A stretch of DNA of 64,000 nt from Escherichia coli (GCF_036507355.1 NZ_AP027877.1), one strand, 5' to 3'. Positions 1,406 through 48,343 are shown, counted from the first letter of the stretch. Notes: generated by a model not told the origin, from the sequence alone. Program-made: numbers and translations.

Positions 1406-1636
1406 AATCGCTGATTTATCTTAATGATTGGCTAAATTCATTTGTTTTTCATTAGGTTGGTTAATCTATTTTGTTGTTAAAGACTATTGCTAAAACAGGT
1501 TAGTCGATTTGGTTATTAGTTATCGCTATCCCGTCTTTAATCCACACCGTTCACCCCGTTAACCTTACCTTCTCTTCTGTTTTATGGGCGCTGACAGGGC
1601 GCAGAAACAGCTTTGCTTACTGGAACATAACGACGC
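1406..1636 (+). promoter_or_regulatory. AT-rich cysJIH upstream region (expected CysB-activated promoter)
   Basis: 230-bp AT-rich non-coding stretch directly upstream of cysJ; exact binding sites not resolved by eye. Confidence 0.4.
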
Positions 1637-3436
1637 ATGACGACACAGGTCCCACCTTCCGCGTTGCTTCCGTTGAACCCGGAGCAACTGGCACGCCTTC
1701 AGGCGGCCACGACCGATTTAACTCCCACCCAGCTTGCCTGGGTTTCTGGCTATTTCTGGGGCGTGCTCAATCAGCAGCCTGCTGCGCTTGCAGCGACGCC
1801 AGCGCCAGCCGCAGAAATGCCGGGTATAACTATTATCTCTGCTTCGCAAACCGGCAATGCGCGCCGGGTTGCTGAAGCATTACGCGATGATTTATTGACG
1901 GCAAAACTGAACGTTAAGCTGGTGAACGCGGGCGACTATAAATTCAAACAAATCGCCAGCGAAAAACTGCTTATCGTGGTGACGTCAACGCAAGGAGAAG
2001 GGGAACCGCCGGAAGAAGCCGTCGCGCTGCATAAGTTCCTGTTCTCCAAAAAAGCGCCGAAGCTGGAAAACACCGCGTTTGCCGTGTTTAGCCTCGGCGA
2101 TAGTTCTTATGAATTTTTCTGCCAGTCCGGGAAAGATTTTGACAGCAAGCTGGCGGAACTGGGCGGTGAACGCCTGCTCGACCGTGTCGATGCCGACGTT
2201 GAATACCAGACCGCTGCCAGCGAGTGGCGCGCCCGCGTGGTTGATGCGCTTAAATCGCGTGCGCCTGTCGCGGCACCTTCGCAATCCGTCGCTACTGGCG
2301 CGGTAAATGAAATCCACACCAGCCCGTACAGCAAAGACGCGCCGCTGGTGGCTAGCCTCTCTGTTAACCAGAAAATTACCGGGCGTAACTCTGAAAAAGA
2401 CGTTCGCCATATCGAAATTGACTTAGGTGACTCTGGCCTGCGCTATCTGCCGGGCGACGCGCTGGGCGTGTGGTATCAGAACGATCCGGCACTGGTGAAA
2501 GAACTTGTCGAACTGCTGTGGCTGAAAGGTGATGAAACTGTCACCGTTGACGGCAAAACGCTGACCCTGAGCGAAGCGCTACAGTGGCACTTCGAACTGA
2601 CGGTTAACACCACCAATATTGTTGAGAACTATGCCACGCTTACCCGCAGTGAAACGCTGCTGCCGCTGGTGGGCGATAAAGCGAAGTTGCAGCATTACGC
2701 CGCGACCACGCCGATTGTCGATATGGTGCGTTTCTCTCCGGCACAGCTTGATGCTGACGCGCTGATTAACCTGCTGCGCCCGCTGACGCCGCGCCTCTAT
2801 TCCATCGCCTCATCGCAGGCTGAAGTGGAAAGTGAAGTGCACGTCACCGTTGGTGTCGTTCGTTATGACATTGAAGGCCGCGCCCGTGCGGGTGGTGCCT
2901 CCAGCTTCCTCGCGGACCGCGTGGAAGAAGAGGGTGAAGTCCGCGTCTTTATCGAACATAACGACAACTTCCGCCTGCCCGCTAACCCGGAAACCCCGGT
3001 GATTATGATTGGCCCAGGCACCGGCATCGCGCCGTTCCGCGCCTTTATGCAGCAACGCGCCGCCGACGAAGCGCCGGGCAAAAACTGGCTGTTCTTTGGC
3101 AACCCGCACTTTACGGAAGATTTCCTCTACCAGGTGGAATGGCAGCGTTACGTCAAAGAGGGCGTGCTGACACGTATCGATCTCGCCTGGTCGCGCGATC
3201 AAAAAGAAAAAGTTTACGTACAAGACAAACTGCGCGAACAGGGCGCGGAGCTGTGGCGCTGGATCAATGACGGTGCCCACATTTATGTCTGCGGCGACGC
3301 TAATCGCATGGCGAAAGACGTTGAGCAGGCACTTCTGGAAGTGATTGCCGAATTTGGTGGCATGGACACCGAAGCGGCGGATGAATTTTTAAGTGAGCTG
3401 CGCGTAGAGCGCCGTTATCAGCGAGATGTCTACTAA
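1637..3436 (+). CDS. cysJ: sulfite reductase (NADPH) flavoprotein alpha subunit
   Basis: 599-aa ORF with flavodoxin-like and FAD/NADPH reductase regions; stop overlaps cysI start (TAATGA). Confidence 0.95.
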
Positions 3437-5148
3437 TGAGCGAAAAACATCCAGGGCCTTTAGTGGTCGAAGGAAAACTGACAGACGCCGAGCGCATGAA
3501 GCTTGAAAGCAACTACCTGCGCGGCACCATTGCGGAAGATTTAAACGACGGTCTGACCGGCGGCTTTAAGGGCGACAACTTCCTGCTGATCCGCTTCCAC
3601 GGCATGTATCAGCAGGATGACCGCGACATCCGCGCCGAACGTGCTGAACAGAAGCTGGAGCCGCGCCATGCGATGCTGTTGCGCTGCCGTCTGCCGGGTG
3701 GAGTTATCACCACCAAACAGTGGCAGGCGATCGATAAATTTGCCGGTGAAAACACCATCTATGGCAGCATTCGCCTGACCAACCGCCAGACATTCCAGTT
3801 CCACGGCATTCTGAAAAAGAACGTCAAACCGGTGCACCAGATGCTGCACTCGGTCGGTCTTGATGCGCTGGCGACCGCTAACGACATGAACCGTAACGTA
3901 CTCTGCACCTCGAACCCTTACGAGTCGCAGCTGCACGCAGAAGCGTACGAGTGGGCGAAGAAAATATCTGAACATCTGCTGCCTCGTACCCGCGCGTATG
4001 CGGAGATCTGGCTCGATCAGGAAAAAGTCGCCACCACTGATGAAGAACCGATCCTCGGCCAGACCTACCTGCCGCGTAAATTCAAAACCACGGTAGTGAT
4101 CCCGCCACAGAACGATATCGATCTGCACGCCAACGACATGAACTTCGTGGCAATCGCCGAAAACGGCAAGCTGGTGGGCTTTAACCTGCTGGTGGGCGGT
4201 GGGCTTTCCATCGAACACGGCAACAAGAAAACCTACGCCCGCACCGCGAGTGAGTTTGGCTATCTGCCGCTGGAGCATACGCTGGCAGTGGCGGAAGCCG
4301 TCGTGACAACTCAGCGTGACTGGGGTAACCGAACCGATCGTAAAAATGCCAAAACCAAATACACGCTGGAGCGCGTGGGGGTTGAGACGTTTAAAGCGGA
4401 AGTGGAGCGTCGCGCGGGGATCAAATTCGAGCCGATTCGCCCGTATGAGTTTACCGGACGCGGAGATCGTATTGGCTGGGTTAAGGGCATTGATGATAAC
4501 TGGCACCTGACGCTGTTTATCGAAAATGGTCGCATCCTTGATTATCCGGGGCGTCCGCTGAAAACCGGCCTGCTGGAGATCGCGAAGATCCACAAAGGTG
4601 ATTTCCGCATTACGGCGAACCAGAATCTGATCATCGCCGGTGTGCCGGAAAGCGAGAAAGCGAAGATCGAGAAGATCGCCAAAGAGAGCGGGTTAATGAA
4701 TGCCGTCACGCCGCAGCGTGAAAACTCAATGGCCTGCGTCTCGTTCCCGACTTGCCCGCTGGCGATGGCGGAAGCGGAGCGTTTCCTGCCGTCTTTTATC
4801 GACAACATCGATAATTTAATGGCGAAACATGGTGTCAGCGATGAGCATATCGTGATGCGTGTAACAGGCTGCCCGAACGGTTGTGGTCGCGCGATGCTGG
4901 CGGAAGTGGGCCTGGTGGGTAAAGCGCCGGATCGCTACAACCTGCATCTTGGCGGCAACCGCATTGGGACACGTATCCCACGGATGTATAAAGAAAACAT
5001 CACCGAGCCGGAAATCCTGGCGTCGCTTGATGAACTGATAGGGCGCTGGGCGAAAGAGCGCGAAGCGGGTGAAGGCTTCGGCGACTTTACGGTGCGTGCG
5101 GGCATCATTCGCCCGGTGCTCGATCCGGCGCGCGATTTGTGGGATTAA
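3436..5148 (+). CDS. cysI: sulfite reductase hemoprotein beta subunit
   Basis: 570-aa ORF with C-terminal siroheme/4Fe-4S cysteine cluster ([16 protein letters not shown] ... [10 protein letters not shown]). Confidence 0.95.
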
Positions 5149-5165
5149 CCATCAGCCCGGTCTTG

Positions 5166-5203
5166 TAGGCCTGATAAGACGTGTGAGCGTCGCATCAGGC
5201 AAG
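5166..5203. repeat. REP-like palindromic element in the cysI-cysH spacer
   Basis: Palindrome gcctgataagacgtgtgagcgtcgcatcaggc read directly from the sequence. Confidence 0.6.
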
Positions 5204-5221
5204 GCAAACAGTGAGGAATCT

Positions 5222-5956
5222 ATGTCCAAACTCGATCTAAACGCCCTGAACGAACTGCCGAAGGTAGATCGCATTCTGGCGCTGGCGGAAACTAACGCCC
5301 AACTGGAAAAATTGGACGCTGAAGGCCGCGTAGCCTGGGCGCTGGATAATCTGCCCGGTGAATATGTGCTTTCTTCCAGCTTCGGCATTCAGGCGGCGGT
5401 GAGCCTGCATCTGGTGAATCAGATTCGCCCGGATATTCCAGTGATCCTCACCGATACCGGTTACTTGTTCCCGGAAACCTACCGCTTTATTGACGAGTTA
5501 ACGGACAAACTCAAGCTCAACCTGAAAGTGTACCGTGCTACCGAAAGCGCAGCCTGGCAGGAAGCACGCTACGGCAAACTGTGGGAGCAGGGCGTTGAAG
5601 GCATTGAAAAGTACAATGACATCAACAAAGTCGAACCGATGAACCGGGCGCTGAGAGATCTGAATGCGCAAACGTGGTTTGCTGGCCTGCGCCGCGAACA
5701 ATCCGGCAGCCGCGCCAATTTACCGGTGCTGGCAATTCAGCGTGGCGTATTTAAAGTGCTGCCGATTATCGACTGGGATAACCGAACGATATATCAGTAT
5801 CTGCAAAAACATGGCCTGAAATATCACCCATTATGGGACGAAGGATATTTATCGGTGGGCGATACCCATACAACCCGTAAATGGGAACCCGGCATGGCGG
5901 AAGAAGAAACGCGTTTCTTTGGCTTAAAAAGGGAATGTGGGTTACACGAAGGGTAA
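5222..5956 (+). CDS. cysH: phosphoadenosine phosphosulfate (PAPS) reductase
   Basis: ORF 5069..5956; start at internal [14 protein letters not shown] (244 aa); C-terminal ECGLH motif. Confidence 0.93.
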
Positions 5957-5973
5957 ATATTGCCGGATAAATT

Positions 5974-6012
5974 AAACGCCTCTGTCAGAAATGATGGGGG
6001 CGTTTTTATTTT
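5974..6012 (+). terminator. rho-independent terminator downstream of cysH
   Basis: Stem aacgcc/ggcgtt (with G-rich 3' arm) followed by tttttatttt. Confidence 0.6.
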
Positions 6013-6128
6013 GCGAGCAGCATTCCTGATTTTAAACGTGAACGCCGCTGGAAGAATTATCAGGTATAGAATGGCGTCGGGTGCTTGAGGCTGTCTGGCG
6101 TTAAGCATTCGCGAGGTTCCAGATGGAC

Positions 6129-6181
6129 AAAAGCCCCAGGCGATATTTCTATCAACCTGAGGCTCGCGTTCGAACGTAGCA
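6129..6181 (-). ncRNA. candidate Sok-like antisense RNA of the hok locus
   Basis: Minus strand: -35 TTGCCT (6216..6211), 17-bp spacer, -10 TAACAT (6193..6188), then about 55 nt ending in an 8-bp hairpin (gcctcagg/cctggggc) plus UUUU; antisense to the hok leader. Confidence 0.4.
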
Positions 6182-6219
6182 ATTCGGATGTTAGTCTCTT
6201 CTTTGCAGGGAGGCAAGAC

Positions 6220-6372
6220 ATGCTAACAAAATATGCCCTTGTGGCAATCATAGTACTGTGTTGTACAGTACTGGGATTCACGCTCATGGTAGGCGACTCG
6301 TTATGTGAGTTGAATATCAGAGAGCGTGGTATGGAGTTTAAGGCAGTTCTCGCTTACGAATCGAAGAAGTAG
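6220..6372 (+). CDS. Hok/Gef-family type I toxin (small membrane peptide)
   Basis: 50-aa product [50 protein letters not shown], closely resembling chromosomal Hok peptides (HokE-like as I recall it); SD gcagggagg upstream; leader begins with the hok-type motif ggtgcttgaggctgtctggc. Confidence 0.8.
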
Positions 6373-6737
6373 CCACCACGTGGGGGTAAAACCCCGCGTA
6401 TTGAATTGTGATGGTTTGGTCTCCTGCACCCTTTTTTAAATTTATATTTTTTATGTGAATATATTGTCTCTATTTATTATTATGAATTTCAAATGAAAAT
6501 CATAAATTTATTCACAATATAAATGTTTTATTGGCTGATATATATCACAGATAATTTTTAAAATATGCGTAAATATCCTTTAAGTTTACTGAAGGATAAA
6601 AATATTGTGACTTTCTTTGATTTCTGGGGAAAAACCCGACGCGACGAGAAAGAAGGGGGTGACGACTATCACCTTCTTTGCTGGCATTCGCTGGATGTGG
6701 CCGCGATGGGCTATTTAATGGTTAAAAGAAATTGCTT

Positions 6738-6746
6738 CGGGCTGGC
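6738..6746. repeat. IS1 target-site duplication, left copy (CGGGCTGGC)
   Basis: Identical 9-mer immediately flanks both IS1 ends. Confidence 0.85.
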
Positions 6747-6761
6747 GGTAATGACTCCAAC

Positions 6762-7265
6762 TTATTGATAGTGTTTTATGTTCAGATAATGCCCGATGAC
6801 TTTGTCATGCAGCTCCACCGATTTTGAGAACGACAGCGACTTCCGTCCCAGCCGTGCCAGGTGCTGCCTCAGATTCAGGTTATGCCGCTCAATTCGCTGC
6901 GTATATCGCTTGCTGATTACGTGCAGCTTTCCCTTCAGGCGGGATTCATACAGCGGCCAGCCATCCGTCATCCATATCACCACGTCAAAGGGTGACAGCA
7001 GGCTCATAAGACGCCCCAGCGTCGCCATCGTGCGTTCACCGAATACGTGCGCAACAACCGTCTTCCGGAGCCTGTCATACGCGTAAAACAGCCAGCGCTG
7101 GCGCGATTTAGCCCCGACATAGCCCCACTGTTCGTCCATTTCCGCGCAGACGATGACGTCACTGCCCGGCTGTATGCGCGAGGTTACCGACTGCGGCCTG
7201 AGTTTTTTAAGTGACGTAAAATCGTGTTGAGGCCAACGCCCATAATGCGGGCTGTTGCCCGGCAT
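6762..7265 (-). CDS. insB: IS1 transposase InsB (InsAB' C-terminal part)
   Basis: 167-aa [30 protein letters not shown] ... NIKHYQ. Confidence 0.9.
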
Positions 7266-7459
7266 CCAACGCCATTCATGGCCATATCAATGATTTTCTG
7301 GTGCGTACCGGGTTGAGAAGCGGTGTAAGTGAACTGCAGTTGCCATGTTTTACGGCAGTGAGAGCAGAGATAGCGCTGATGTCCGGCGGTGCTTTTGCCG
7401 TTACGCACCACCCCGTCAGTAGCTGAACAGGAGGGACAGCTGATAGAAACAGAAGCCAC
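7184..7459 (-). CDS. insA: IS1 InsA (transposition repressor / InsAB' N-terminal part)
   Basis: 91-aa [43 protein letters not shown]. Confidence 0.9.
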
Positions 7460-7514
7460 TGGAGCACCTCAAAAACACCATCATACACTAAATCAGTAAG
7501 TTGGCAGCATCACC

Positions 7515-7523
7515 CGGGCTGGC
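7515..7523. repeat. IS1 target-site duplication, right copy (CGGGCTGGC)
   Basis: Identical to 6738..6746. Confidence 0.85.
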
Positions 7524-9451
7524 TGATTATTTTCGTCAATTAGGGATTTCTGACAAGGAACAGGCGGCTCAATTTTTCGCCTGGTTGTTGTGCTGGCACG
7601 ATATTGGAAAATTTGCCCGCTCATTTCAGCAACTTTACCTGCACCCACAACTCAAGGTTCCGGAAGGCGCAAGAAAGAATTACGAAAAGATCTCTCATTC
7701 AACGCTGGGCTACTGGTTGTGGCATCATTATTTAAGTGAATGCGAAGAATTGCTTCCTGCCTCTTCACTCTCTACTCGCAAACTTAAACGTGTAATAGCG
7801 ATGTGGATGCCCATGACTACCGGGCATCATGGTCGGCCCCCTGACCGTATTGATGAACTGGATAATTTTCTGCCTGAAGACAAAGTTGCCGCGCGAGATT
7901 TTCTCCTTGAAATCAAGGCACTGTGTCCGCTCATAGAGATTCCCACATTCTGGGATAATGACGAGGGAGTTGAACTTTTAAAACAACTTTCCTGGTATAT
8001 CTCTGCAACAGTCGTACTTGCAGACTGGACGGGTTCGTCAACGCGATTTTTTCCACGCGTCGCACACCCAATGGATATTAAAGATTACTGGCAGAAAACT
8101 TTAGTTCAGGCTCAAAACGCCTTAACCGTCTTTCCTCCAAAAGCAGAAACCGCACCTTTCACCGGAATTAATACGCTGTTTCCTTTTATTGAGCACCCGA
8201 CACCATTACAGCAAAAGGTGCTGGATCTGGATATCAGCCAGCCAGGGCCACAGTTATTTATTCTGGAAGACGTGACTGGCGCAGGTAAAACAGAAGCGGC
8301 GCTTATCCTGGCGCACAGGTTGATGGCTGCGAGGAAAGCACAGGGTTTGTTTTTTGGCCTGCCAACAATGGCAACGGCCAATGCCATGTACGATCGGCTG
8401 GTCAAAACCTGGCTTGCTTTCTATTCGCCAGAGTCCCGCCCCAGCCTGGTGCTGGCACACAGTGCCCGCACATTAATGGACCGCTTTAATGAATCACTCT
8501 GGTCCGGTGATTTAGTCGGGTCAGAAGAACCGGATGAACAAGCGTTCAGTCAAGGATGTGCAGCCTGGTTTGCCGACAGTAACAAGAAGGCTTTACTGGC
8601 TGAAATTGGCGTCGGCACGCTGGATCAGGCGATGATGGCGGTGATGCCGTTCAAACATAATAATCTGCGGCTTCTGGGGCTGAGTAACAAAATCCTGCTG
8701 GCTGATGAGATCCACGCCTGTGACGCTTACATGTCATGCATTCTTGAAGGGCTGATCGAGCGGCAGGCGCGTGGTGGAAACAGCGTCATTTTGCTTTCTG
8801 CTACGTTATCCCAACAGCAGCGCGACAAACTCGTCGCCGCCTTTGCGCGTGGCACAGAGGGCCAGCAAGAAGCTCCGTTCCTTGAAAAGGATGATTACCC
8901 CTGGCTGACGCATGTCACGAAATCCGATGTGAACTCACACCGGGTAGCGACGCGCAAAGACGTTGAGCGTAGCGTCAGCGTGGGTTGGCTTCATAGTGAA
9001 CAAGAGAGTATTGCGCGTATCGAATCGGCGGTAAGTCAGGGAAAATGCATCGCCTGGATCCGCAATTCTGTCGATGACGCTATTAAGGTTCATCGTCAGC
9101 TGCTTGCCCGCGGCGTCATTCCCGCTTCCAGCCTTTCACTCTTTCATAGCCGCTTTGCTTTTAGCGATCGCCAGCGAATCGAAACGGAAACGCTGGCACG
9201 CTTTGGTAAAAATTGTAATTTAAAAAGATCATCGCAAGTCATTGTTTGTACACAAGTAATTGAGCAAAGTGTGGATATTGACCTGGACGAAATGATCTCC
9301 GACCTTGCCCCCATTGATTTGCTGATCCAGCGAGCGGGGCGATTACAGCGACATATCCGCGATATTAATGGTCAGTTAAAGCGTGACGGAAAAGACGAGC
9401 GTTCCCCTCCTGAATTGCTGATTCTGGCCCCCGTCTGGGACGACGCTCCTG

Positions 9452-42782: not shown

Positions 42783-43189
42783 GTGAAAAGGTGGTGTTCA
42801 GTCAACTGAGCCGTAAATTTATTGATGAGAACGATGCCACGCCCGCCGAGGCGCAGCAGGTGGTCTATTACAGCCTGGCGATTGGTCACCACCTTGGGGT
42901 TATCGATTGCCTGGAAGCGGCGCTCACCTGCCCGTGGGATGAATATCTGGCATGGATTGCCACTCTGGAGGCGGGCAGCGAAGCCCGCCGCAAAATGGAA
43001 GGTGTGCCGAAATATGGTGAGATCGTCATCGACATTAACCATGTGCCGATGCTGGCCAATGCATTCGATAAAGCCCGGGCAGCGCAAACTTCGCAGCAGC
43101 AGGAATGGAGTACAATGCTGTTAAGTATGCTGCATGATATTCATCAGGAAAACGCCATCTATTTGATGGTGAGGAGACTGCGTGACTGA
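42779..43189 (+). CDS. hycH: formate hydrogenlyase maturation protein HycH
   Basis: 136-aa ORF in conserved position. Confidence 0.9.
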
Positions 43190-43652
43190 CGTTTTACTCT
43201 GTGTTGGCAATAGCATGATGGGCGATGATGGCGCAGGTCCGCTGCTGGCGGAAAAGTGCGCCGCCGCGCCGAAAGGTAACTGGGTGGTGATTGACGGCGG
43301 TAGCGCACCGGAAAACGACATCGTCGCTATCCGTGAACTGCGCCCTACACGACTGCTGATTGTCGACGCCACGGATATGGGGCTAAACCCCGGCGAGATC
43401 CGCATCATCGACCCGGATGACATCGCCGAGATGTTTATGATGACTACCCATAACATGCCGTTGAACTACCTTATCGACCAGTTAAAAGAAGACATTGGCG
43501 AAGTGATTTTCCTCGGCATCCAGCCGGATATCGTCGGCTTTTACTACCCGATGACCCAGCCGATTAAAGATGCGGTAGAAACGGTTTATCAACGACTGGA
43601 AGGCTGGGAAGGGAATGGCGGCTTCGCGCAGTTAGCGGTAGAAGAAGAATAA
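43182..43652 (+). CDS. hycI: hydrogenase 3 maturation endopeptidase
   Basis: 156-aa [27 protein letters not shown]. Confidence 0.93.
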   Translation: MTDVLLCVGNSMMGDDGAGPLLAEKCAAAPKGNWVVIDGGSAPENDIVAIRELRPTRLLIVDATDMGLNPGEIRIIDPDDIAEMFMMTTHNMPLNYLIDQLKEDIGEVIFLGIQPDIVGFYYPMTQPIKDAVETVYQRLEGWEGNGGFAQLAVEEE

Positions 43653-43676
43653 TTCTTCATCAGGGAATTCAGGGAA

Positions 43677-44450
43677 TTGAACATCAGAACAGGGATGTGC
43701 GCTTTTTTATTGAGCTTAGTGCAGTCTGCACAGGCCACCAGCTTTACCGAATATCTGCCAATGAGTGGCAGCGAATATGCGCAAAAGCGGGCGCTGAAAC
43801 CTCTCCTGACCATGCCTTATTATACCGAGCAAACTTGGCATTTTAGAAAAATCGGCGTTGCTGGCGTGACGCTTGAGAAGATGCCAAATGAAGAGGATTA
43901 CTGGCAATTAACCGCTAAAGACCGCGCGGGTAAATCCTGGACGGTGCCAGTGGGGTTGCTGGCAAATATGGCGGGCAAAGGGCAGCTCTATCGCGCCGAT
44001 CTGGATCGTAACGGCATTCAGGATCTGGTTATCTGGTTGCCAAGTGCCGGTAATGGTCTGGCGCCCTATGCACATTTAATCCTCATGACGTTCACGCACG
44101 AAGGCCGTCCCTGTGTCTTTGAACCCTGGGGATTCTACACTGCAAGCAAAACTGGCGTAGATGATTTGCTGGATTTACAAGGCAATGGTCACACGCAATT
44201 GCTGGATATGCAGTTTAATTCTGGTTACTGGATAACCAGTCTGTATCAGGTAAAAGACGCCAAATGGCAGCGTGTTCACGGCTGGTTTGGCAAGTTAAGC
44301 TATCCCGCGCTCACGCGTTTTACTTATACCCCCAACCGTAAACTCGTCCTCAAACCCATCGCCGGGCGCGACACACAAACGGAAGATCTGTCGCTGACGC
44401 AGCGTTGCTTGATAAAGGGGGATATGCTTGATGGGGTGAATCAGAACTGA
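43677..44450 (+). CDS. secreted protein of unknown function with two FG-GAP-like D-x-D-x-N-G-x-x-D loops
   Basis: 257-aa ORF starting 24 nt after the hycI stop; N-terminal signal peptide (CAFLLSLVQSAQA|TS); motifs ADLDRNGIQDLVIW and DLLDLQGNGHTQLLD. Confidence 0.6.
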   Translation: MNIRTGMCAFLLSLVQSAQATSFTEYLPMSGSEYAQKRALKPLLTMPYYTEQTWHFRKIGVAGVTLEKMPNEEDYWQLTAKDRAGKSWTVPVGLLANMAGKGQLYRADLDRNGIQDLVIWLPSAGNGLAPYAHLILMTFTHEGRPCVFEPWGFYTASKTGVDDLLDLQGNGHTQLLDMQFNSGYWITSLYQVKDAKWQRVHGWFGKLSYPALTRFTYTPNRKLVLKPIAGRDTQTEDLSLTQRCLIKGDMLDGVNQN

Positions 44451-44611: not shown

Positions 44612-44923
44612 ATGCACATCATTTCTAAAGCGCCATTTGAAGAGTCTGCGCGTAAATATCCTAACGACGCTCTGGCTCTTCAGGCATTGTATCGGGTTAT
44701 TAAGGAAACGGATTTTTCTACGCCAGAAGAAATGCGAACGGCTTTTCCCAACCTCGACAATTTTAAATATCGCAACAAATGGTACGTTCTGGATGTCGGC
44801 GGGAACAATCTTAGGGTTATTGCCTACATAAACTTTGTTAATAAGCGGTTCTTTGTGAAGCACATAACGAATCACGCAGAGTATGACAAACTGACACGTT
44901 ACTACAGAGAGAACAAAGAATGA
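44612..44923 (+). CDS. HigB-like type II toxin (RelE/ParE superfamily)
   Basis: 103-aa ORF MHIISKAPFEESARKYPND ... FPNLDNFKYRNKWYVLDVGGNNLRVIAYINF, collinear with E. coli HigB as recalled; toxin gene precedes and overlaps the antitoxin gene (ATGA), the inverted order typical of higBA. Confidence 0.75.
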   Translation: MHIISKAPFEESARKYPNDALALQALYRVIKETDFSTPEEMRTAFPNLDNFKYRNKWYVLDVGGNNLRVIAYINFVNKRFFVKHITNHAEYDKLTRYYRENKE

Positions 44924-45339
44924 CTGCTAATGCTGCACGCGCTGTTAAAGCAACAAGAGAACTGGTCAATGCAGTCCCCTTTCTGGGAGGCAGTGACTCA
45001 GAAGATGATTATCGTGAAGCACTGGAACTGGTCGAATATTTGATTGAAGAAGATGACACCAATCCACTTATCGACTTTCTGGCGAGCCGCATTGCAGAGT
45101 ATGAAAACAACAACGAAAAGTTTGCAGAGTTCGACAAAGCCGTTGCGGCAATGCCGGTTGGCGTGGCGTTACTTCGCACGTTGATTGATCAACATAATCT
45201 GACCTATGCGGATTTGAAGAACGAAATCGGCTCTAAATCCCTGGTCAGTCAGATTTTGTCTGGACAACGATCCCTGACAATATCCCACATTAAGGCACTT
45301 TCAGCCCGATTTGGCGTTAAGCCGGAATGGTTTCTTTGA
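44920..45339 (+). CDS. HigA-like antitoxin (C-terminal XRE-type HTH)
   Basis: 139-aa ORF with C-terminal HTH region GSKSLVSQILSGQRSLTISHIKALSARFGV. Confidence 0.75.
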   Translation: MTANAARAVKATRELVNAVPFLGGSDSEDDYREALELVEYLIEEDDTNPLIDFLASRIAEYENNNEKFAEFDKAVAAMPVGVALLRTLIDQHNLTYADLKNEIGSKSLVSQILSGQRSLTISHIKALSARFGVKPEWFL

Positions 45340-45365: not shown

Positions 45366-45444
45366 GCCCGATGCGCAGTGCTTATCGGGCCTGCATAGTT
45401 CGTGCGACATGTAGGCCGGATAAGGCGTTCACGCCGCATCCGGC
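45366..45444. repeat. BIME-like pair of REP palindromes
   Basis: gcccgatgcgcagtgcttatcgggc and ggccggataaggcgttcacgccgcatccggc. Confidence 0.65.
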
Positions 45445-45452
45445 ACGGTTGC

Positions 45453-48343
<2,891 letters not shown>

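Follow-up and report, generated by a model that had tools for sequence, protein, structure and literature searches.

We propose that the open reading frame (ORF) that follows hycI in a 64,000-nt stretch of Escherichia coli DNA (hereafter, the window) is a functional gene, ancestral and dispensable, whose product would be an exported, all-beta, Ca2+-stabilized binding module made from the hyc transcript. As a whole, we favor this reading with modest confidence. The gene is real, belongs to a protein family with shared motifs, keeps its position behind hycI, occurs as distinct allele classes, and has left a deletion scar in K-12; from its features, we infer the binding function. The relevant features of the window are as follows:

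43182..43652, plus strand: hycI, encoding the hydrogenase-3 maturation protease (ORF list and RefSeq annotation of a 99.6% identical record)
43653..43676, plus strand: 24-nt spacer between hycI and the ORF (sequence, consensus scan, and comparison of upstream regions)
43677..44450, plus strand: the post-hycI gene, with a TTG start and 257 codons (ORF list, homologues, and RefSeq annotation)
43677..43736, plus strand: predicted Sec signal peptide, residues 1-20, MNIRTGMCAFLLSLVQSAQA (read from the sequence, with predicted cleavage after AQA)
43872..44156, plus strand: hypervariable central segment, codons 66-160 (two E. coli allele classes and mosaics)
43998..44024, plus strand: calcium loop 1, D108-L-D-R-N-G-I-Q-D116, an exact DxDxNGxxD in the A-B loop of blade 1
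44112..44114, plus strand: codon of Cys146, forming an enteric-only cysteine pair with Cys244 (44406-44408)
44172..44198, plus strand: calcium loop 2, D166-L-Q-G-N-G-H-T-Q174, degenerate (D-x-Q-x-N-G-x-x-Q; column counts)
44612..45339, plus strand: HigB-family toxin (103 aa, 44612-44923) and helix-turn-helix antitoxin (139 aa, 44920-45339) (RefSeq annotation)

The gene extends from 43677 to 44450, and hycI ends at 43652, which agrees with the 257-aa ORF placed 24 nt after hycI by the initial annotation. A chance ORF is excluded by the conserved homologues and by dN/dS values of 0.16-0.32, and all antisense ORFs inside the gene are ≤74 aa according to the ORF list. Its product is called "hypothetical protein" in RefSeq, where the start is usually placed at the internal ATG at 43695 to give 251 aa (WP_001360181.1), and "Periplasmic or exported protein" in UniProt. 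We favor the TTG start because a different start codon occupies this position in other genomes (ATG in E. coli 20-16 and Escherichia sp. MOD1-EC7003, GTG in Klebsiella spallanzanii), and because the residues between the TTG and the internal ATG are conserved in frame across the compared sequences. The internal ATG is disfavored since it would give a signal peptide without a charged n-region. Within the 24-nt spacer, AGGGA(A) Shine-Dalgarno-like motifs are present upstream of the TTG, and the AGGGA motifs are supplied by a perfect 18-nt tandem duplication, TCAGGGAAT-TCAGGGAAT (43660-43677), whose last base is the first base of the start codon. Alleles other than that of the window have TAAGGAAT-TCAGGGAA in place of this duplication. 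Literature searches for STM2844, for hycI with ascB, and for hycI with FG-GAP/VCBS revealed no published work treating the post-hycI gene.

The predicted cleavable signal peptide described in the initial annotation is borne out by features visible by eye, i.e., a positive n-region (MNIR), a hydrophobic core (TGMCAFLLSLV), and an AxA site (QSAQA, followed by TS), and by equivalent leaders elsewhere in the family. Indeed, 100 of the 105 family members carry a hydrophobic leader ahead of the conserved YLP motif, and the n-region of this leader contains K or R in 96 of the 105. Judged from these sequence features, the product would be exported to the periplasm or secreted. In addition, Cys146 and Cys244 co-occur in all 11 enteric sequences of the 112-sequence alignment (A2) and in none of the others. 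The pair may form a clade-specific disulfide, which would probably tie the short tail to blade 1, and its presence fits an oxidizing compartment.

Concerning the extent of the family, a word-indexed search returned proteins from Escherichia, Escherichia albertii, Salmonella (269 aa), and Klebsiella spallanzanii (250 aa), together with a few metagenomic proteins of 314-348 aa. A profile search against 1.84 billion cluster representatives revealed 485 clusters at E ≤ 1e-3, including 87 at E ≤ 1e-30, so that the family comprises at least 485 clusters at 50% identity; no curated model covers it. Most clusters have lengths of 330-360 aa, and a typical member has ~340 aa. Acidobacteria account for most of the named sources (Bryobacterales, Blastocatellia, Pyrinomonadaceae, and Acidobacteriales), and the others include Thiolinea disciformis, Zoogloeaceae, Obscuribacterales, and Ozemobacteraceae, to which UniProt adds Pseudomonas nitroreducens and Leminorella richardii. 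From the N terminus, the shared architecture consists of a leader peptide, YLP[LM], an N-terminal beta subdomain with an invariant Trp, and ADLDxNGxxDL; then GNGLAP, GRP, DLLDLxxDGxAEL, GYWxTxLY, RW, and YPLxTRFT; and finally PN, GRxP, DLSN, and a domain of ~100 aa ending in PELLWA. This last domain is missing from the Escherichia/Salmonella/Klebsiella branch, which has a short tail instead.

Genomic loci were collected with 22 family sequences as queries, and 76 metagenomic loci were fetched in addition to genome loci and contigs. One Bryobacterales metagenome-assembled genome carries two tandem head-to-tail paralogues of 333 and 336 aa (2004-3005 and 3014-4024 of locus L012). The closest non-enteric relative (48% identity), on metagenomic contig L004, lies downstream of an isochorismate-synthase-like gene and is followed by an unannotated 184-aa ORF (2287-2841) with no Pfam or PADLOC match.

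The initial annotation had attributed to the protein two D-x-D-x-N-G-x-x-D loops like those of calcium-binding FG-GAP propellers. Loop 1 is indeed exact, and its columns are nearly invariant among 112 relatives (D108 in 110, D110 in 108, N or D at position 112 in 110, G113 in 105, and D116 in 111), whereas loop 2 matches only approximately. The family consensus of loop 2 is D-x-D/N-x-D-G-x-x-E (D-x-D/N-x-D-G-x-A-E), and it is the enteric clade that is degenerate; the acidic ligands are lacking from loop 2 of the window protein, a point that we report against the view of the protein as a Ca2+ module. An hhalign comparison of residues 99-158 with residues 159-218 matched 18 columns, corresponding to the loop and strand B (E = 4.5e-5, probability 69%), and on the strength of this match we regard the two blades as a homologous internal repeat; the N-terminal subdomain showed no repeat similarity to either of them.

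Searches with the window protein gave zero matches in Pfam, even at E ≤ 10, and zero in NCBIfam and PADLOC. Among the 112 relatives, FG-GAP_3 (PF13517) was detected in 7 at E ≤ 1e-3, a number that rises to 44 at E ≤ 0.1; the corresponding numbers for FG-GAP (PF01839) are 1 and 12, and precomputed PF13517 matches exist for several further relatives. Since the relatives are matched and the window protein is not, the Pfam link to FG-GAP is valid at the family level only. When run against all PDB sequences, the family profile gave only sub-significant matches (E = 0.045-0.7), and each of these paired aDLDrNGiqDli with the integrin alpha-V calcium loops (best E = 0.045). DxDxDG-type motifs in the A-B loop define the integrin/PVL/VCBS supercluster (PMC8023676). 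For the blades and motifs, the FG-GAP-like character suggested in the initial annotation is thus supported by the conserved loop motif, the internal repeat, the FG-GAP_3 matches in relatives, and the weak integrin alpha-V alignments, and on the basis of sequence the loops may bind Ca2+. The likeness to FG-GAP/VCBS propellers (PF01839 and PF13517; integrin alpha and PVL lectin) consists of this motif in the A-B loop of a blade. In contrast to the seven blades of integrins and PVL, the window protein has only two motif-bearing blades in a core of ~190 residues, and it also differs in having its own N-terminal beta subdomain, which carries the YLP motif; most relatives possess a separate C-terminal domain as well.

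AlphaFold predictions reached a pLDDT of 56 with a 14-sequence alignment and a pLDDT of 92.3 (pTM = 0.88) with the 112-sequence alignment; the latter model is all-beta, with ~16 strands over residues 41-214. A Foldseek search against the PDB revealed no match at E ≤ 1e-3, and collectively the sequence and fold searches gave zero significant matches to solved structures. Comparisons of the model with individual folds are listed below as structure entry, score, and accompanying count:

eIF3b propeller: 6ybt, 7.0, 120
PliI-Ah, periplasmic lysozyme inhibitor: 3od9, 6.9, 96
UmbA4: 9oee, 6.7, 111
PVL lectin: 2bwm, 6.5, 99
X-Tfi XAC2610: 4qtq, 6.2, 139
CarG: 4o7j, 5.2, 103
Integrins: 3v4p and 4wjk, 4.5, 110 and 113

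Against AFDB50, Foldseek returned only the family itself, under automatic names. Proteins of E. coli 55989 (B7LED0), Salmonella, Pseudomonas nitroreducens, and Leminorella richardii belong to it (E = 6.5e-39 to 4.7e-21), and TM-scores of the UniProt family members, normalized to the query, range from 0.92 to 0.79. The P. nitroreducens protein is named "VCBS repeat-containing protein" and that of L. richardii "FG-GAP repeat"; unlike the window protein, the UniProt members from outside Escherichia and Salmonella have 331-351 aa and keep the C-terminal domain. None of the UniProt members has been characterized. In the predicted model, the fold is propeller-blade-like and has no characterized close relative. 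The initial annotation had assigned no function, and its view of the protein persists after the Pfam, NCBIfam, PADLOC, and structure searches, none of which gave a confident match to a characterized family.

Among the alternatives to a non-enzymatic binding module, the one that survives best is a carbohydrate-binding lectin or glycan-processing protein of the VCBS, PVL, or tachylectin type, acting on an envelope or environmental polysaccharide. We consider it rather improbable given that the motif is present in two blades only, that the fold scores are as weak as those of the other candidates, that no glycan-utilization genes recur beside the gene, and that no catalytic signature was identified for glycan processing.

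We analyzed the occurrence of the gene in 5,426 complete E. coli genomes. It is full length (≥80% coverage) in 1,462 of them and partial in ~840 more, so that it is absent, scarred, or truncated in ~73%; the E. coli copies are always chromosomal and usually single-copy. In a common remnant, the gene breaks off after its first 182 nt, which are annotated as encoding a 61-aa protein, and the antitoxin gene follows immediately. In K-12, hycI and ascB are adjacent, as stated in the initial annotation, and the spacer between them measures 158 nt (MG1655, NC_000913.3, 2842415-2842572; 4416-4573 of locus L025). This spacer contains the start region of the ORF (..ACAGGGATGT) fused to its last 26 nt (GGGATGTTCTTGATGGGGTGAACCAG), followed by a REP by ascB; the junction lies at a short GGGAT repeat, and the higBA pair is missing too. 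Because the spacer keeps both ends of the ORF, K-12 descends from a carrier and underwent an internal deletion between short GGGAT repeats. The gene is ancestral to the Escherichia-Salmonella-Klebsiella group and dispensable, and it has been lost through many deletions, among them that of K-12, whose scar testifies to repeated loss of an ancestral gene. The earlier description of an accessory gene holds in that the gene is missing or incomplete in most of the 5,426 genomes; rather than a gained element, it is an ancestral one, anchored to hycI and repeatedly deleted. Its absence from K-12 accounts for its having gone unstudied so far, and its frequent loss implies that it is unimportant under many conditions.

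A mobile-element origin was rejected on the basis of the native GC content of the gene (0.51, versus 0.41-0.46 for the downstream toxin-antitoxin pair) and of the lack of copies on E. coli plasmids. Two entries of the plasmid collection that carry the gene (NZ_OL790696.1 and NZ_LN868944.1; 4.8 Mb and 728 kb) are probably mislabeled chromosomes, and two unannotated 2-4 kb matches in the phage collection (OR845509.1 and OR850966.1) are probably host DNA. A 343-aa Salmonella protein, A0A633HV03, annotated as "Hydrogenase 3 maturation protease", matches the protein across 188 columns; it looks as though HycI and the post-hycI gene product had been merged into one call.

Over codons 66-160, the E. 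coli alleles form two classes that share just 73-77% nucleotide identity (dS ~1.0-1.2), with the window, strain 12867, and Escherichia sp. MOD1-EC7003 in one class and AR_0017 and JNE082640 in the other; mosaic alleles also exist, e.g., in strain 20-16. According to the secondary structure of the model, the differences fall mostly between strands (residues 70-79, 94-103, 122-126, 131-134, 141-143, and 149-152). The flanking hycI is 93-98% identical between strains, and hycG, hycH, and hycI display dS values of 0.04-0.37 and dN/dS values of 0-0.13. For the post-hycI gene overall, dS between alleles is 0.13-0.55 and dN/dS is 0.16-0.32, i.e., the gene is under purifying selection; in deep comparisons, dN/dS is 0.13-0.22. 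The variation in the central segment is old, and it has been maintained or imported as opposed to arising by decay; the two classes may be due to balancing selection or to introgression.

A decaying relic, in which the enteric version has lost its C-terminal domain and is functionless and eroding, would account for that loss, for the missing, scarred, or truncated state of the gene in roughly three-quarters of the complete genomes, for the frameshift near codon 82 in the copy of the E. albertii type strain (NBRC 107761; 8001-8770 of locus L011), for the truncated forms common in Salmonella, and for selection that is relaxed relative to hyc (dN/dS of 0.16-0.32 versus 0-0.13). We nevertheless consider it unlikely, since dN/dS stays well below 1 across deep divergences (dS ~1), the ORF is intact in three genera at 61-70% amino acid identity, the calcium loop and the core motifs show no variation, and a new cysteine pair has become fixed in the enteric clade.

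With regard to genomic position, hycI, the last known gene of the hyc operon, is the fixed upstream neighbor: it directly precedes the gene at each enteric locus whose upstream sequence could be read (~36, from genome and metagenome scans and RefSeq records), while the downstream genes vary among hydN, higBA-hydN, higA-ascB, higBA-ascB, and ascB. The simplest ancestral order, seen in Salmonella, E. albertii, and Escherichia sp., is hycI-X-hydN-hypF (X being the post-hycI gene), with all four genes on one strand. The gap to hycI is 24 nt in the window and 26 nt in Salmonella, and a consensus scan of the 24-nt spacer predicted neither a terminator nor a promoter; this fixed short spacing and the lack of predicted signals suggest that the gene is the last cistron of the hyc transcript, and co-transcription with hyc by read-through is plausible. 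In contrast, the Klebsiella spallanzanii gene is cut off from hycI by an antisense symE, which indicates that the gene can also be expressed on its own.

Between hycI and hydN, the locus looks like an insertion hotspot. In the window, the toxin and antitoxin genes, which overlap by 4 nt, form a low-GC insert between the post-hycI gene and ascB; across E. coli, both genes, the antitoxin alone, or neither may be present, and in Klebsiella spallanzanii the hycI-hydN interval carries parDE and two symE genes. Rfam gave a single match, a sub-threshold REP-derived naRNA4 near ascB (41.9 bits against a gathering score of 59.5), corresponding to a REP-type element at 45414-45458, in the gap separating the antitoxin gene from the end of ascB. 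Owing to this REP element, a 1.9-kb query matched a median of 32 places per genome.

The lasting attachment to hycI would be explained if the product were a hydrogenase-linked periplasmic factor for formate hydrogenlyase or [NiFe]-hydrogenase biogenesis, e.g., by handling metal through its DxDxDG loops, and the constancy of hycI upstream at every readable enteric locus and the single-strand ancestral order are in keeping with such a role. So is the 326-aa homologue of Thiolinea disciformis DSM 14473, an unrelated gammaproteobacterium, which follows a [NiFe] large-subunit gene and hypF-hypC-hypD-hypE (1626-8909 of locus L018), 95 nt after hypE, and constitutes a second, independent hydrogenase adjacency; moreover, DxDxDG-type loops may bind metal cations other than Ca2+ (PMC8023676). 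We searched 59 non-enteric loci and one E. coli locus (L065), 554 kb in total, by tblastn with HypC, HypD, HypE, HypF, the [NiFe] large subunit, HycF, HycG, HycH, and HycI. Among the non-enteric loci, many of which are short, only that of Thiolinea matched, and no hyp or hyc genes were found near the homologue in the other 58. Hydrogenase association as a family-wide property was thus rejected, and it is better described as a property of the enteric lineage, i.e., one evolutionary event, plus one possibly coincidental case.

The non-enteric contexts that were readable are mutually unrelated (menF; an efflux pump with a TetR regulator; argG; acyl-CoA dehydrogenase with amidase; FTHFS with MsrB), and the closest non-enteric relatives adjoin unrelated genes. 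Clustering the flanking ORFs of 56 non-enteric loci revealed no recurrent partner gene, only generic response-regulator and ABC-transporter domains that are inconsistently adjacent.

Hydrogenase 3 and its maturation are cytoplasmic, and K-12 and most E. coli have an active hydrogenase 3 without the post-hycI gene. The gene shares its strand with hycH and hycI and, like them, is found at the 3' end of the hyc cluster, 24 nt after hycI. HycH and HycI, however, are maturation factors that act in the cytoplasm and occur in all E. coli, whereas the product of the post-hycI gene carries a predicted export signal, is variably present, and is not needed for hydrogenase 3 in K-12. We consider a hydrogenase-linked role very unlikely; the connection looks positional, not functional.

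We accordingly return to the exported binding module. The product would be exported by the Sec pathway to the periplasm or beyond, with a core of two FG-GAP/VCBS-type blades bearing DxDxDG-type A-B loops; the enteric branch has lost the C-terminal domain of ~100 aa and gained Cys146 and Cys244. As the putative last cistron of the FhlA/formate-dependent hyc transcript, the gene would be expressed in fermentative growth. The Ca2+-stabilized, non-enzymatic module may then contact an extracytoplasmic partner through the hypervariable loops of blade 1. On the other hand, the family-invariant YLP, GRP, GYWxTxLY, and TRFT motifs could suggest that the protein is an enzyme or has a highly specific ligand.

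Of the possible target classes, the one that we rank first, tentatively and with low confidence, is an incoming cell-wall hydrolase that the protein would inhibit protectively, in the manner of PliI or X-Tfi. PliI, X-Tfi, and Tsi1 have been described as periplasmic inhibitors of propeller-like form, an exposed loop of which is inserted into a peptidoglycan hydrolase (PMC10933484). The similarity to PliI-Ah (3od9), X-Tfi XAC2610 (4qtq), Tsi1, and CarG (4o7j) is below the level of homology or shared function, and a PliI Pfam match in one relative is non-significant (E = 0.027). Unlike PliI, X-Tfi, and Tsi1, the window protein shows no identified inhibitory motif and has no adjacent cognate effector gene. 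In enteric genomes, the neighbors are hycI upstream and then higBA, asc, or hydN, with no cognate effector beside the gene, and a classical effector-immunity pair is disfavored since the 59 non-enteric loci have no conserved neighbor such as a cognate effector.

A more specific and speculative version, unlikely in its full form, is that the family consists of periplasmic guard proteins and that the enteric member is an orphan inhibitor of a cell-wall-degrading effector or lysozyme, co-expressed with formate hydrogenlyase in the anaerobic gut, where balancing selection from competitors would hold the blade-1 classes. Still less likely than such guard proteins would be a partner that handles metal in the periplasm for [NiFe]-hydrogenase maturation, a role at which the independent, hypE-adjacent Thiolinea copy hints. 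The deep dimorphism of the central loops resembles the pattern of conflict genes.

Nothing established is overturned by the post-hycI gene. Its position places it within one of the best-known enteric operon regions, with which it is probably expressed, and the K-12 hycI-ascB spacer now proves to be a deletion scar. More broadly, our analysis defines a sizeable family of exported proteins for which there is no curated model and provides it with a confident structural model.
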